IMG/VR virus record: IMGVR_UViG_3300033074_001347
Coordinates: 1 to 64,000 of that record
Source: a virus
Taxonomy: Duplodnaviria; Caudoviricetes
Strand: one strand, 5' to 3'
DNA: 64,000 nucleotides
Each line of letters starts with the position of its first letter. The stretch's first letter is position 1. Both the position numbers and the translations under genes were made by a program. Below the pieces are notes generated by a model. It was not told the DNA's origin. It was given only the letters and a program-made list of their open reading frames with translations, and searched no databases. Of the stretch, positions 37,612 to 63,793 are shown piece by piece.

Positions 37612-37896
37612 TTAATTAACAGATACATTAGGTGACCCCTGTGCCACGGTATCCCCGCAGGAAATAGGGTCCCCTATTCTACCAACGGCCAACCCGTTTG
37701 CTGTTACATTTGGGCTACCGCCGCTTAGCGAACCTCCATGACAACTAGGGCCACAACAATGTGTTGCATAGCTATCACCTACTCTTACCACGCCGATACC
37801 ATTAACCTTTACGTCGGAAGACGCACTAGTAGAAGGTCTTGCAGGAAAGCACCCGTGGCCGCTTGATAAATCACCTAACCTCGTTATAGCAGGCAT
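37612..37896 (-). CDS. PAAR-repeat spike-tip protein (T4 gp5.4-like)
   Basis: MPAITRLGD..GHGCFP, VRVGD..THCC, GRIGDPISCG..GSPNV; TAATG coupling. Confidence 0.92.
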   Translation of the reverse strand: MPAITRLGDLSSGHGCFPARPSTSASSDVKVNGIGVVRVGDSYATHCCGPSCHGGSLSGGSPNVTANGLAVGRIGDPISCGDTVAQGSPNVSVN

Positions 37897-38447
37897 TAGA
37901 CCAAACCCCAATGACCTTCCCTATAAAGGAACTTAGCTATTAGTTGATCGTCTATATGAAATTCTACAGAATTTTTACCTGATATGGTAAGAGAGTAATC
38001 TTCATCATTCTCCTGATATTTAATCGTGTAGTATGTAATCCCCCCATGCTCTATTGTAGAAACCTTTACCTTGTCTGTATCTACCGCTATGTCTAGTGAT
38101 TCTACTATTTTATCTGTGTGATGGTTAATATCGCTGGCTGTAAAGGACTTGCATGTCACTATCTCTAGTATCTTTATTATTTCGGCATATACATCAATAG
38201 GCTTACCGTTTTTTCTTAATGGCGGGTTTAACCAAATTTGTGAACCTGCCTGAGTTTTTAGCACAATGTCATTCTTGGTAAAGATATTGATATCCTTAGC
38301 AATAATATTAAGGGAACTGTTTATCCCATCAATATAAATGTTACCCTTATCATCTTTATAGAATGCAACGCTATTTAGCAAGTCTTGGAGGGAGATAGGT
38401 TCTATCTCCCTCTTATCCCCATTGGGTAAAGTTAGTTCCATAGGCAT
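37896..38447 (-). CDS. hypothetical (possibly baseplate-associated) protein
   Basis: AAGGA RBS; coupled to PAAR. Confidence 0.65.
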   Translation of the reverse strand: MPMELTLPNGDKREIEPISLQDLLNSVAFYKDDKGNIYIDGINSSLNIIAKDINIFTKNDIVLKTQAGSQIWLNPPLRKNGKPIDVYAEIIKILEIVTCKSFTASDINHHTDKIVESLDIAVDTDKVKVSTIEHGGITYYTIKYQENDEDYSLTISGKNSVEFHIDDQLIAKFLYREGHWGLV

Positions 38448-52421: not shown

Positions 52422-52456
52422 CTGCTTTTCCTTTACAATAAATTGAATTTTAAATC

Positions 52457-59556: not shown

Positions 59557-60282
59557 TTACAACTTCTGATTAGCTACATTAGGTATAGATGGAGTTGCCC
59601 TAGCGGTTCTAGTTGTAGGGGCAGTGGGACTACCTCCACTACCACTATTCAAATTTATATCCCCGCCATTTATATTAACCCCACCACTGCCATGTATATT
59701 TAGTGTAGAACTGCCATTTATATCAATAGCACCACCTGCGTGTAAATTAACATTACCAGAGGCCTTAATGCTAGCATTCCCTGTTACATTTATGTCAGCT
59801 ACACCACTTAATATAGTTAGATTACCCGAATTATTTATTTGTATTGTTGTACCAGATCTATGTATCAGTTTTATTTCACCAGTAGAGAAATCTATTTTCC
59901 ATAAGTTATTATAGCGGTCTATCCATCCATGAACATTGGGATAATTTGCTTTTAACTCATTTGGTATTGTTGAAGGAAACTGTGCGCCTGCTATGTATGC
60001 CAAACTGTATCCCTCGTCATCAAGAAACGAAACCCACACCCAACTTCCCTTTTCAGGAACTTCTACTTTCCCGGTTATACCGTTACCCGTGTAATTTGAA
60101 TATTGAATAGCCCATGGTAAATCCCCATCAGCATATTCTCTATGTAATTCTGGTATGCGTACACGTATTCTACATTGCTTCTGAGGATCATTATTAAAGA
60201 CAACTAATGCGGCAAAAAGCTTGCCGCGAAAGGAGCCATCATTATTTGTAGAATCGTTAACATTTTGTATAGCCATTAACAA
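59557..60282 (-). CDS. baseplate central spike (gp5/gpV-like: OB-fold + beta-helix, no lysozyme)
   Basis: DPQKQCRIRVRIP..LPWA..VPEKGSWVWVSF; Gly/Asn-rich beta repeats. Confidence 0.88.
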   Translation of the reverse strand: MLMAIQNVNDSTNNDGSFRGKLFAALVVFNNDPQKQCRIRVRIPELHREYADGDLPWAIQYSNYTGNGITGKVEVPEKGSWVWVSFLDDEGYSLAYIAGAQFPSTIPNELKANYPNVHGWIDRYNNLWKIDFSTGEIKLIHRSGTTIQINNSGNLTILSGVADINVTGNASIKASGNVNLHAGGAIDINGSSTLNIHGSGGVNINGGDINLNSGSGGSPTAPTTRTARATPSIPNVANQKL

Positions 60283-60316
60283 GCCTCATTCATTCATTAT
60301 TAAATTGAATAGGACT

Positions 60317-60344
60317 AAAAAAGGGGGCATATGCCCCCTTTTTT
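60317..60344 (-). terminator. perfect 28-bp palindrome; probable bidirectional terminator
   Basis: AAAAAAGGGGGCATATGCCCCCTTTTTT. Confidence 0.8.
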
Positions 60345-60355
60345 ACCAATTACCC

Positions 60356-60928
60356 TTAAAACTTAAACATGCTTAGGAATCCACCCCTACCTATTCGCTT
60401 ATTTAGGTCCTTGGTAATACCCTCTAATAATGAGTTATCTTTATTCATGAAGGATAGAAGTTTTCTCATGTCCTTACCATCAAAGGCTATGTTACTAAAA
60501 CCACGTTTTTTGATCTTTTGTCCTATGTTATTGATACTATCAGTTTGTATATCATTAAATAATACGTCACTACCTTCCTTCATTTCCCACTCAGGAATCT
60601 TCAATTCATCCTTACTCACGCTGTTATTTGCACCTAATATCTTATTATTAGACTCTATATATTTTTTGGCCTGGTATCTATTATATTTACCATCCCTAAA
60701 CTCTTCGGGATCTAGGTCTATATAGTAATACATAACTTTCCTAGTATCATTTATTTTGCCTGTATCCTCTACATACGATAGAAATAAAATTATTCTACCT
60801 GATATAGAAGTGTTGCTAATGAAATACGAAACTCTAAAATCCGGTTCGGTTCTGAGAGTTTTAGTTTCTCTGCCAATAATTAACCTACCGCTTTTATCCT
60901 TAGTAGGGTTATCAAAGTTAAATCTCAT
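60356..60928 (-). CDS. hypothetical protein (190 aa)
   Basis: AAGGGA RBS; no motif recognised. Confidence 0.65.
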   Translation of the reverse strand: MRFNFDNPTKDKSGRLIIGRETKTLRTEPDFRVSYFISNTSISGRIILFLSYVEDTGKINDTRKVMYYYIDLDPEEFRDGKYNRYQAKKYIESNNKILGANNSVSKDELKIPEWEMKEGSDVLFNDIQTDSINNIGQKIKKRGFSNIAFDGKDMRKLLSFMNKDNSLLEGITKDLNKRIGRGGFLSMFKF

Positions 60929-60960
60929 GTTATATATCCCTTTAGTTACAACTAAATTGA

Positions 60961-61491
60961 TTATTTATATGGTTTCCATGATCTAAAATCATAAACATAT
61001 CCTATGTCTTTTTCTTTTATTTTAAACTCCTTATTCAGAACTAGTATTTCATGTTCTTTAACCAGATTTTCTAGGGTCATCATAACATTAACTCCTATCA
61101 TATTCCTTATTTGTTGTTCGGTATAGTGGTCTACTATGAATTTTAGGAACTCTTCTATATTTAGAAATATGTCTTTGTCACTTACTTTTCTCTCTAAAAT
61201 AATATGGGTTGTGAACATCATTGCAACTTTTAGATTTGTAGTCCAGCTGCTAAACACATGGTCCTTGAGTTTTACCTTACCGTTAACAATCTTATTAATG
61301 ATGTCGTCCCTACTACCCTTTATAGTAAAGCCTCTATAAACTACACCAGAATATTTTGTAAATTCTGGTGGTATTTTTCCCTTAAATTTCTCTAGAGTTT
61401 TTCTAGCTTTGTTCCTTTGCGTCATAGAGCCCGGACCAATTTTTTCGGTTGACAACACCCAGTCAATAACTGCTTTCACTAAGTTGTCCAT
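60961..61491 (-). CDS. ADP-ribosyltransferase-like protein (R-S-E clade)
   Basis: VVYRG, FSSWTT...A..F, KEHEILV (ExE). Confidence 0.75.
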   Translation of the reverse strand: MDNLVKAVIDWVLSTEKIGPGSMTQRNKARKTLEKFKGKIPPEFTKYSGVVYRGFTIKGSRDDIINKIVNGKVKLKDHVFSSWTTNLKVAMMFTTHIILERKVSDKDIFLNIEEFLKFIVDHYTEQQIRNMIGVNVMMTLENLVKEHEILVLNKEFKIKEKDIGYVYDFRSWKPYK

Positions 61492-62633
61492 CAGCTTAAT
61501 ACCTCCCCTGTTTGTGGCCCTTGACTAACCAACTCAAATTTTTCACCATACCTACCCGCGCGTAGATAGCGCACACGCGCACCAACAATATAACGTCCAC
61601 TAAACCTATCATAATCACCTCTATATTGTGGTAAGTAAATATCCACAGGGTCAAACAATCGTAAGTCTGTTTGTTCATCAACAATAACATGAATATCAGT
61701 TGACCACGTAGATCTTATGCGTTTATTTTGATATTCGGCTAGCTCATATTTACTATGAATATTGCCAGTATTAGGAGCTGTGTAAGGGGTACGAGTAAAG
61801 CCTATCTTTTTTGAGTCCTCACTGTTAATAGTAGTACGGGATACCCTTTTTACACTTAGTTGGTCTTGCTCACTGATTACGCCATCAACACCTATTCTAT
61901 GGTGTTTTACCTGATACCCTGCTGTGTGATTATATAGGGTTGAGCCACTAATAACTTGGTAATCTCTTATTATGTGTCTTTTTACAGTTGAATTATTATC
62001 GGTAGACCCCTCATTAAATCGTGCTTTGGGACTACCAAACGCATACGTAGATAAATTCCTATAATATACCAAGCCTTCCGCATCTACCCCTAGTACCATA
62101 CAGCTCAAGTTGTCGGCCCATCCGTGTAAACTTATTTTGTCGGCCCATTTATTATAGTTTAACCTATTTGGATACCATACTTGACTATCGGCTGTGGGGT
62201 CACACAACGCTTTTAACCCACATTGACTAGCAATATAACTTATGGCTGCACTTGACGTACCTGTAAAAGGTTTTGTAGCCATAGAGTGTAACCAAAGAGG
62301 AGCATTTAAGATAGCATTTATTCGGTATATAATACCTCCATTTGCATACCTGTGTTGTGGCTGACCGAGTATTCGGAACTTTAAGTTTGGTATTTCCTGC
62401 TTTTCTTTATCCTTACCAAACTGAATTTCTATTATTGCTCCATCAACAAGGAGATCTAAATTGGAACTTGTTTCCGATCTATCTTGATATTGTAAGGTCA
62501 GTGTGGGAAGAGCCTGTAAATTATTTTCTATAATCAATAAATCCTGTATAGAGCTAGGCGACAAGTTTAGTTCAACACCGTTGATGACCACCCTTAAATA
62601 ATAAACACCTTGAAGCTCAAGAGCCATATTCAC
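61491..62633 (-). CDS. baseplate hub (gp27/late control D-like)
   Basis: size and position between gp53-like and spike genes; RLFDPVDI...SGRYIVG OB-like C-terminus. Confidence 0.7.
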   Translation of the reverse strand: MNMALELQGVYYLRVVINGVELNLSPSSIQDLLIIENNLQALPTLTLQYQDRSETSSNLDLLVDGAIIEIQFGKDKEKQEIPNLKFRILGQPQHRYANGGIIYRINAILNAPLWLHSMATKPFTGTSSAAISYIASQCGLKALCDPTADSQVWYPNRLNYNKWADKISLHGWADNLSCMVLGVDAEGLVYYRNLSTYAFGSPKARFNEGSTDNNSTVKRHIIRDYQVISGSTLYNHTAGYQVKHHRIGVDGVISEQDQLSVKRVSRTTINSEDSKKIGFTRTPYTAPNTGNIHSKYELAEYQNKRIRSTWSTDIHVIVDEQTDLRLFDPVDIYLPQYRGDYDRFSGRYIVGARVRYLRAGRYGEKFELVSQGPQTGEVLS

Positions 62634-63012
62634 TACTTTTGTTAAAAAATCCTATTGCCTGCCTTTGACCTTTAAAATGTTCATTGGCAAAACTTTGTGG
62701 TTGTATTTGGAAATCTACAGGTAGATCTGTAAATTTTTGTAACCACATAGAAGTGGAAGAGCACACCAAGCTCCATTTAGCATTATGTTGAAAACTACGT
62801 AAGTCTGATTCAGTAAACTCTTTTTTAAATAAGTCATCGCCCATAATCATACGTATATCCACGTCCCTCCAATCAGGTTTTACTAAAGAGGATCCAACTA
62901 AGAAACAACCATAATTATCTGGGTCATTAAACGCACCATATGCCAGGTTTATAATATGGCATGCTTGATTTAATAAGAATACTTTAGGAGCACCTATATA
63001 ATCACACTTCAT
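62617..63012 (-). CDS. minimal nucleotidyltransferase (Pol-beta superfamily)
   Basis: FLVGSS...DWRDVDIR (GS + DxD), later DFQ. Confidence 0.7.
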   Translation of the reverse strand: MKCDYIGAPKVFLLNQACHIINLAYGAFNDPDNYGCFLVGSSLVKPDWRDVDIRMIMGDDLFKKEFTESDLRSFQHNAKWSLVCSSTSMWLQKFTDLPVDFQIQPQSFANEHFKGQRQAIGFFNKSSEYGS

Positions 63013-63439
63013 TAGATATACACCTTAACACTTTTGATATGATGCTAGCTTTTATTACAGCGGTGGGAGAAGGACTAAAAACCAAATAATTTTTAATTCC
63101 TCCTTCATAAATAATCACACTATCATACCCCATGGCTTTTATATCATTTTTTAGTGGTTCTAGTGCTTCCCATGTGTCAGACGCCAATTTATTTAAAATT
63201 TGAGAGGAGCTCCTATATATTTTACCATCGTAAGGGTCCTCAATTTCTATAACGGCCTTAAATAACTTATCTAAGTGTGATCTTTTTAAGCTATCAAATG
63301 GATTGTATAAATGTAGTATATATCTATACAAATTTTTCCCATAATTCTTTGCAAAGTCCTTGCTACTAGAAAAGAAGGTGTCCTCTTTGGGCCTATCAAA
63401 GATTTTATCAGTTCCATGCCACACATTAACAGTTATCAA
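63002..63439 (-). CDS. ADP-ribosyltransferase-like protein (ART-PolyVal-type, His clade)
   Basis: WHGT..F...FFSSSKDFAKNYG..Y...L..YNPFD...GYDSVI; TTG start with AGAGGA RBS. Confidence 0.7.
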   Translation of the reverse strand: MITVNVWHGTDKIFDRPKEDTFFSSSKDFAKNYGKNLYRYILHLYNPFDSLKRSHLDKLFKAVIEIEDPYDGKIYRSSSQILNKLASDTWEALEPLKNDIKAMGYDSVIIYEGGIKNYLVFSPSPTAVIKASIISKVLRCISNEV

Positions 63440-63451
63440 GGTACTAATCCT

Positions 63452-63793
63452 CTATATTGTTGCTATTGTTCCAAATACAGATCTATTTCTACCTAAATAT
63501 GCACTTATTTGGTCACGATTAGGTAATTTTAGTAGTGAGCCTACCTTTATTTCTGACGGATGAATATATCCATTATACATAAGTACAATCCACCAAATTG
63601 TAGTTGTATTATACTCGTTACGACAAATTGTAGTTATAGGTTCTCCCCTATACGTTATCGTACTGTATTTTGTAACGGCTTTTCTCAACCCTATAACAGC
63701 AGGGCTAAGAGGGTCCTGCCACAGCCCGTTAGACCCTACTTTATGGTGTTCTGTTTGTAAATATTTGGGACTATAATTAGTACTGGTTTTCAT
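63452..63793 (-). CDS. baseplate wedge gp53/tail X (LysM-like) protein
   Basis: GEPITTIC..EY....WWIVLMYNG...P..IKVGSLLKLP. Confidence 0.8.
   Translation of the reverse strand: MKTSTNYSPKYLQTEHHKVGSNGLWQDPLSPAVIGLRKAVTKYSTITYRGEPITTICRNEYNTTTIWWIVLMYNGYIHPSEIKVGSLLKLPNRDQISAYLGRNRSVFGTIATI

Follow-up and report, generated by a model that had tools for sequence, protein, structure and literature searches.

Two predicted ADP-ribosyltransferases and a minimal nucleotidyltransferase encoded around the baseplate hub gene of a probable jumbo phage

ADP-ribosyltransferases (ARTs) of the Alt and VIP2 types keep a genomic association with phage baseplate genes and are packaged, and the ART of polyvalent proteins is a virion-delivered effector domain (PMC5512222). 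Alt of phage T4 is packaged, injected, and modifies Arg265 of the RNA polymerase alpha subunit (PMC5512222), and on the T4 map its gene adjoins the 51-27-28-29-48-54 hub cluster. More widely, ARTs are found in 30% of myoviruses, myoviruses and jumbo phages are both enriched for them, and about 44% of the ARTs of phages lie in packaging contexts (PMC9503650). Here, we analyzed the first 64 kb (the window) of the 87,188-bp IMG/VR virus record IMGVR_UViG_3300033074_001347 (Duplodnaviria; Caudoviricetes), in which a baseplate hub gene is surrounded by genes for two predicted ARTs of different clades (ART145 and ART176), a predicted nucleotidyltransferase (NTase; NT131) and an orphan open reading frame (ORF). 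CheckV completeness of the record is 36%, from which the whole genome would measure roughly 240 kb, the size of a jumbo phage.

Our best explanation for this locus, in which we place middling confidence, is that it encodes independent accessory enzymes that are made late, the ARTs plausibly being delivered by the virion like T4 Alt. The four small genes appear to have been inserted as two pairs, at both ends of the hub gene, into a baseplate module of jumbo myoviruses that is conserved in other respects (PmgG-like, LysM/gp53-like, hub, spike, gp25 and gp6), and three of them would encode intact-looking enzymes (Table 1). In Rhizobium phage RHph_N46 and Ralstonia phage phiRSL1 the wedge, hub, spike, gp25 and gp6 genes are contiguous, with gaps of 3-12 nt; the RHph_N46 spike, to which the spike here is 36% identical, directly follows the hub. 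Thus, the four genes are read as two insertions specific to this lineage, each of two genes and each at one junction of the hub. Phages Lu11, PaBG, HRDY3 and Y3 carry other small genes after the hub, which shows that this junction tolerates cargo. A first-pass annotation of the sequence had proposed this gene order, and all seven ORFs from the wedge to the spike were confirmed on the minus strand at the coordinates in Table 1, with the motifs it had singled out present and equal to the conserved ones described below.

Alt is among the closest known counterparts of ART176. Like T4 Alt (and ModA/ModB), it is predicted to be a phage R-S-E (Arg-Ser-Glu) ART with an Arg/Ser/ExE site, it adjoins baseplate hub genes, and it would be made late. 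Unlike Alt, it is 176 rather than 682 residues long and is co-operonic and translationally coupled with the hub, whereas T4 alt lies on the opposite strand. There is also no detectable sequence similarity between the two (no T4 match by tblastn, hhalign probability of 0.1). The locus as a whole would work like T4 Alt, with the difference that its ARTs are small, belong to two clades and are untagged, in that they have no leader resembling the T4 capsid targeting sequence (CTS; concept in PMC3012670).

The case for the ART176 fold is built on a uniform list of structural matches together with its motifs, the Z-scores being modest. We compared the AlphaFold2 (AF2) model (pLDDT of 76.6) to 48,161 PDB representatives by VIA structural search, where ranks 1-25 were all R-S-E ARTs of the C3/iota/VIP2 type (Z of 4.9-7.2, 98-143 residues aligned) and more distant ARTs continued to rank 39. 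The top matches were C3bot2 (139 residues, Z of 7.2), CPILE-a (6.9), Certhrax (6.6), Tre1 (6.5), Vis (6.4) and VIP2 (6.3). Foldseek placed Vis and the cholera and pertussis toxins on top with weak E-values, and the Atlas leads were DRAT, ART and a portal fusion. In the model, the Y52-R53-G motif is found in strand 50-55, S81-S82-W83-T-T lies in strand 80-84 and is followed by a helix, and E148 of the E146-x-E148 motif begins strand 148-152, after a helical segment. ART176 thereby keeps the order of the solved R-S-E ARTs, with Arg in strand 1, S-x-W/T in strand 2 and ExE before strand 5, and matches the C3 exoenzymes, iota/C2-I/VIP2/Certhrax/Vis and Tre1 over about 130-140 residues (Z of 6.3-7.2). 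It differs from them in its 10-20% identity, in the lack of a Pfam match or a secretion/binding component, and in having no conserved immunity gene that we could recognize.

Sequence searches indicate that ART176 is rare. A word-index search returned only the protein itself, and an exhaustive search of 1.84 billion representatives yielded five distant relatives (E of 7e-5 to 1e-3, 27-35% identity), all singletons on contigs of 1-5 kb. Alignment of the six sequences contains 12 invariant columns, six of which are Y52, R53, S82, W83, E146 and E148, so that the R-S-E triad is among the invariant residues of a family that is only 27-35% identical. No stretch of this alignment was conserved enough for a pattern scan, and scans with patterns from two relatives (P0020 and P0017) found nothing. 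ART176 had no Pfam or NCBIfam match at E-values up to 0.1, which includes PF01129, PF03496 and PF07357, and comparison with the sequences of solved structures in the PDB, as a single sequence or as a profile, gave nothing useful. Judged by its modeled fold, ART176 is a real R-S-E ART, and since it matches no curated family it constitutes a new, rare family within the clade.

In the C3/VIP2 group an ExE motif denotes arginine specificity. The ExE motif of ART176 predicts, from the sequence, arginine-specific mono-ADP-ribosylation of proteins, comparable to iota, C2, VIP2 and Alt. Two observations on its relatives may be added. The sole match in GenBank phages is a hypothetical gene of Vibrio phage phiKT1024 (L085 4944-5408; 26.5% identity over 79% of the query, with an E-value of 0.07 that is not significant alone), which sits inside an array of tRNA and homing-endonuclease genes. 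One relative (P0019) has the N-terminus MKSFIEYLLEA, close to the targeting sequence of T4 internal proteins, and this leader suggests that at least one ART176 relative is packaged in the head.

ART145 is predicted to be an ART of the ART-PolyVal type (PF18760; related to Tox-ART-HYD2, Iyer et al. 2017). It scores 32.0 bits against this Pfam profile, for which the cut-off is 31.2 (E of 2.4e-7, profile positions 9-128 of 140); a six-frame search gave 30.6 bits, or 31.4 with the neighboring stretches. Sequences of solved structures gave nothing useful. A single homologue was found in a database of 5.8 billion clusters (P0016, which matches PF18760 at an E of 3e-4), and degenerate-pattern scans added one viral and 18 metagenomic sequences, giving 20 relatives in all. 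Some of these are domains of larger proteins, as would be expected of a polyvalent-protein domain for L110 (1513 residues) and L107 (1665 residues), and also L099 (577 residues), while ART145 itself is solo. Solo relatives were located near terminase, transposase, endolysin or helicase genes, or beside NUDIX genes. ART145 thus resembles ART-PolyVal in its score above the gathering threshold, in relatives within proteins of 1513-1665 residues and in phage origin, and differs in being a stand-alone protein, in residing in a baseplate operon rather than a head/portal context, and in its active site. The published ART-PolyVal site consists of His in strand 1, Tyr in strand 2 and Asp in strand 5 (Iyer et al. 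2017, PMC5512222), against His, Phe and Glu (H8, F22 and E112) in ART145.

The conserved positions of the ART145 family are H8-G, an aromatic residue at 22, Y33-G, S-D-T-W-E and E112-G-G, which take in the H8-G-T, F22-F-S and Y33-G motifs from the first-pass annotation. Retaining the presumed strand 1 requires the TTG start, which has GAGGA 8 nt upstream. Comparison of the 21 members (including L092-L110 and P0016) reveals that the first catalytic position is His, Arg or Asn (YHG, YRG or FNG), that position 22 is Phe, Tyr or Trp, and that the Glu of E-G-G is nearly invariant. By sequence, then, members of the family fall on both sides of the divide between ARTs of the His type and ARTs of the Arg type. 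In one contig (L092 2714-6339), four consecutive genes, the last an ART145 homologue, share a leader M-x-x-x-F-K-x-F-E-N/S like the T4 capsid targeting sequence, and two NUDIX-type genes lie directly downstream of the run. Other members of the family carry the leaders MKYIKLFENF, MKHIKLFENF and MKYIMSFENY.

We assign NT131, on its AF2 model, as a minimal Pol-beta NTase that is a new sequence family in a well-known superfamily. In the model (pLDDT of 86.7) the NTase core has the alpha-beta-alpha-beta arrangement; GS follows strand 1, strand 2 carries DxD and strand 3 carries D100. Ranks 1-5 of the VIA search were all minimal nucleotidyltransferases (MNTs), with modest Z-scores: 2rff (7.2), 1no5 (6.6), 1wot (6.6), 8xeh (6.4) and 5yep (6.1), over 83-103 aligned residues. 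ANT(4'), CCA-adding enzyme, Pol beta, Pol mu, OAS2 and CdnE were found lower in the list. Alignment with 12 homologues (41-52% identity) shows VGS, PDWRDxDxR, LPxDFQxQP and AN to be invariant or nearly so; G40-S41, D50-x-D52 and D100 are invariant in all 13 sequences and match strands 33-39, 51-57 and 99-105. None of these 13 sequences had a Pfam match at E-values up to 1, NT131 had no match in NCBIfam, PHROGs or PADLOC, and comparison with the sequences of solved structures, alone or as a profile, gave nothing useful. NT131 shares its size, its core and the GS...DxD...D arrangement with MntA and other HEPN-MNT antitoxins, with HI0073, and with the solo Pol-beta NTases of mobile elements (Iyer et al. 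2017). It departs from them in having no HEPN partner, in its own signature PDWRDxDxR ... LPxDFQxQP, and in standing alone in many unrelated phage contexts.

Structure prediction with structural search, a check that the first-pass annotation had called for, returned an ART fold for ART176 and an NTase fold for NT131, and its fold and family calls hold for both ARTs, each from a different clade, and for an NTase of the MNT type. One could ask if these folds are still enzymes. Their position within a structural operon would suit catalytically dead domains, one or more of them having been taken up as a minor component for baseplate structure or assembly, and ART145 departs from the canonical triad (F22 in place of Tyr) in a family whose first catalytic residue varies between His, Arg and Asn. 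However, the catalytic residues of ART176 and NT131 are precisely those that are invariant in families of 27-52% identity, E112-G-G is kept in nearly all ART145 relatives, and the same baseplate is built in related phages that lack these genes. We regard recruitment of dead folds as most improbable.

The distribution of the families indicates how the genes relate to each other. The NT131 family is present in at least 237 viral contigs (237 of 279 IMG/VR pattern matches encode a relative), from phages of all genome sizes, and in GenBank it is represented, among others, by phiRSL1 ORF162 and by actinophage genes that carry the annotation nucleotidyltransferase. The phiRSL1 copy adjoins DnaX- and SbcC-like genes, and that of RadFad is among early small genes. 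We analyzed the neighbors in 80 of the 237 viral contigs (L005-L084), and none was related to either ART, to the orphan or to the hub. In the flanks of the 79 other loci, 145 of 155 proteins were singletons and none recurs. No HEPN toxin partner lies beside NT131, whose neighbors are ART145 and the hub, and no conserved two-gene unit was seen in the 79 other loci. Since the homologues are unlinked and variably placed, the genes are best seen as independent insertions and not as one system. The first-pass annotation had proposed a single coordinated set, which this comparison does not bear out: a related neighbor accompanies the NTase at 0 of 80 loci, and RHph_N46 and phiRSL1 have the same baseplate without the insertions. 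It had also named unlinked, variably placed homologues as a sign of independent insertion, and the synteny comparison gave just that pattern.

The same data bear on a regulatory role for the partners of the two ARTs. ART145 might be controlled by the NTase, as MntA AMPylates HepT, and ART176 by the orphan as an immunity protein, as Tri1 serves for Tre1. An 11-nt overlap links ART145 to NT131, MNTs are the antitoxins of HEPN-MNT systems and the top five structural matches of NT131 contain two of these antitoxins (8xeh and 5yep), and the ART toxin-immunity pairs 6drh and 8za7 occur in the list of structural matches of ART176. Against two such toxin-regulator pairs, the widespread NTase family has no recurrent neighbor, no HEPN partner and never an ART beside it in the loci analyzed, no ART145 relative examined has an adjacent NTase, and the orphan, having no homologue, allows no conserved pairing to be demonstrated. 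Prediction of a complex between ART145 and NT131 gave a score of 0.00, which is no answer and counts neither for nor against binding. We consider this arrangement quite unlikely, and the suggestion in the first-pass annotation that the NTase or the orphan is a regulator or antitoxin found no supporting evidence.

The orphan itself had no match in Pfam, PHROGs or NCBIfam, nor in the tblastn search of phages or the scan of viral contigs. Its best Atlas score was 0.77 and the ESM prediction had a pLDDT of 0.36. It is coding-like, with a codon score of +0.26 in frame and negative values in the other five frames. The sole PADLOC row, to ThsB, is at chance level (E of 0.01) and was rejected.

The junctions within the operon are tight. 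Read from the sequence, the wedge and ART145 genes are separated by a 12-nt gap, and ART145 overlaps NT131 by 11 nt. The overlap between NT131 and the hub is 17 nt if the hub starts at GTG and 11 nt if it starts at ATG, the hub and ART176 overlap by 1 nt (TGATG), and a 32-nt gap precedes the orphan. All four small ORFs have phage-like codon usage in the frame given here (+0.21 to +0.26 bits per codon) and score below zero in all others. The placement of these genes within the baseplate operon, with starts and stops that are coupled, is borne out as first annotated, and late co-expression is a fair inference from it. The TAG stop of the wedge gene (window 63440-63454, minus) is in frame with ART145 with four codons (R-I-S-T) between, an arrangement with a chance of 1 in 3, and read-through would yield a wedge-ART fusion. 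Amber suppression as a means of fusing the two was considered and rejected, with no tRNA genes in 87 kb and TAG terminating 26 of 88 ORFs.

The hub and wedge identify the surrounding module. Proteins of RHph_N46, Lu11, phiRSL1 and PaBG ('putative baseplate hub subunit') match the hub at 25-28% identity across more than 93% of its length, and its nearest GenBank relatives are jumbo myoviruses: Rhizobium phage RHph_N46, Pseudomonas phages HRDY3, Lu11 and PaBG, Ralstonia phage phiRSL1 and the Erwinia Y3 group. The conserved neighbor of the hub, the LysM/gp53-like wedge, is homologous to the 'putative baseplate wedge subunit' of RHph_N46 and to Lu11 gp54. No close relative of the hub or the phage was found in viral contigs, in metagenome contigs or among GenBank phages by DNA, the best being at or below 28% identity.

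We propose that the enzyme genes, which have no upstream promoter of their own and are translationally coupled to structural genes, would on that account be made late with the baseplate proteins, from a transcription unit that probably ends at the strong terminator after the orphan. By analogy to T4 Alt and the polyvalent-protein ARTs, the ARTs would most likely be carried out in the virion and act on host proteins as the next infection begins. We regard such delivery as about an even call. Relatives of both ARTs do bear short N-terminal leaders like the T4 capsid targeting sequence (MKYIKLFENF, MKTKFKMFES and MKSFIEYLLEA). NT131 might act by AMPylation of proteins or by addition to RNA 3' ends.

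Several points weigh against this explanation. None of the four proteins here has a common or CTS-like leader, and the core of ART145 starts at residue 3. The NT131 family is found among early or replication genes in phiRSL1 and the actinophages, and so is not typically a virion protein. Packaging is not obligatory for phage ARTs, as ModA and ModB of T4 demonstrate (PMC5512222). The structural Z-scores are modest, at 7.2 or below. The fold of ART145 relies on its narrow Pfam match, which clears the cut-off by 0.8 bits, and its site is H-F-E where H-Y-D is published. Finally, the phage is uncultured, and both late expression and presence in the virion are predicted here from its sequence.

The missing leaders, the early or replication-region homologues of the NTase and the non-packaged ModA and ModB also speak for independent morons that use the late operon only for expression, with unpackaged enzymes acting in the producing cell late in infection, for example in host shut-off, in blocking abortive-infection or NAD-based defenses, or in superinfection exclusion. 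In the same direction, homologues of all three enzymes are at variable, non-structural positions, and the orphan has its own intergenic region, a motif common to the regions upstream of other late genes, and a terminator, which together form a moron-like layout. However, a hitch-hiker needs neither tight coupling to the hub and wedge nor four cargo genes clustered exactly around the hub, the ART-PolyVal family is typical of delivered proteins, and relatives of the ARTs bear the CTS-like leaders. Such late action in the producing cell is possible, though we consider it less likely than delivery. A different route for delivery would be the tail: the ARTs, instead of being packaged in the head, might ride on the surface or in the interior of the hub-spike complex, whose hub gene theirs flank, and be released from the tail tip at penetration, as a phage counterpart of the VgrG/PAAR cargo effectors of type VI secretion systems, such as the ART Tre1. 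In a variant, read-through of the LysM/gp53-like gene may append ART145 to its product and in this way bring it to the baseplate. We judge loading at the tail tip to be unlikely.

Returning to the insertions, the four genes have a GC content of 32-35%, compared with 39.0 +/- 2.8% for the large genes, and their third-position GC (GC3) and codon scores match the phage. A recent foreign origin was considered and is unproven, the GC3 and codon scores being phage-like despite the low GC. Together with a terminator of the phage's own recurring type, these scores argue that the insertions are not recent imports.

The terminator after the orphan, GGGGGCAT/ATGCCCCC followed by T6 (60338-60317), was missed by a consensus terminator scan and confirmed by folding (dG of -21.6 kcal/mol, z of -4.45), and it is the sole hairpin of its type within the window. 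Near-identical terminators of the form AAAAAGGGGGCC-loop-GGCCCCCTTTTTTAGTC make up a genome-wide family, comprising the window copy (60317-60340) and four more (Table 1). The orphan, the spike, a fiber gene and one further late gene are each preceded by the sequence TCAATTTA, 17-30 nt ahead of the start codon. Three of its four window copies are within about 140 nt of late-operon intergenic DNA, against a chance expectation of 5.9 copies for the whole window, and we regard TCAATTTA as a candidate late promoter element. Elsewhere in the window, a gene for a PAAR-domain spike tip (37612-37911, minus; phrog_281, E of 1.7e-33) has an unusually high GC of 0.50 and lies 22 kb from the spike gene, adjoining the lysis region.

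Table 1 Features of the baseplate operon and recurring sequence elements. Positions refer to the window unless marked G000.
Feature	Position	Strand	Length	Assignment and remarks
PmgG-like gene		minus	258 aa	ahead of LysM/gp53-like wedge; phrog_1114
LysM/gp53-like small baseplate wedge	63452..63793	minus	113 aa	phrog_15542 at 6e-9; phrog_7145 'baseplate wedge subunit'
ART145	63002..63439	minus	145 aa	predicted ART-PolyVal-type ART, stand-alone; H8, F22, Y33, E112; first gene of insertion 1
NT131	62617..63012	minus	131 aa	predicted minimal Pol-beta-fold nucleotidyltransferase; G40-S41, D50-x-D52, D100; second gene of insertion 1
Baseplate hub, gp27 position	61491..62633	minus	380 aa	phrog_25710 at 4e-47
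ART176	60961..61491	minus	176 aa	predicted R-S-E mono-ADP-ribosyltransferase (C3/iota/VIP2/Alt-like); first gene of insertion 2
Orphan ORF	60356..60928	minus	190 aa	coding-like; second gene of insertion 2
Intrinsic terminator	60317..60338	minus		hairpin + U6; closes unit ahead of spike gene
Central spike	59557..60282	minus	241 aa	gp5/gpV OB domain + beta-helix; Pfam Phage_base_V 3.5e-9; phrog_430 7e-21; downstream boundary
gp25-like		minus	123 aa	after spike; Pfam GPW_gp25, phrog_261
gp6/J-like		minus	517 aa	after gp25-like; phrog_219; Pfam Baseplate_J scores below cut-off
Further terminator copies	G000 74339-74393, 79005-79095, 85705-85851, 86110-86164
TCAATTTA copies	60953-60960, 60301-60308, 52439-52446	minus		also G000 73805-73888

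The first-pass annotation did not recognize this arrangement; Iyer et al. describe ARTs that are encoded with baseplate or morphogenesis genes and packaged, so that phage ARTs of a late-encoded, packaged kind have precedent (PMC5512222, PMC9503650). ART176 and NT131 are new sequence families in known superfamilies. With this kind of arrangement already described computationally, the gain is incremental unless delivery from the tail tip is shown. Phage ARTs are front-line tools of host takeover and counter-defense, and few have known targets. The locus supplies three compact candidate enzymes: a very rare R-S-E ART, a solo ART-PolyVal, and an NTase family that hundreds of phages carry but that neither Pfam nor PHROGs includes. 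Being so tightly coupled to the hub gene, they pose a testable question, namely whether small untagged enzymes are carried in the virion of a jumbo phage, and by which part of it.

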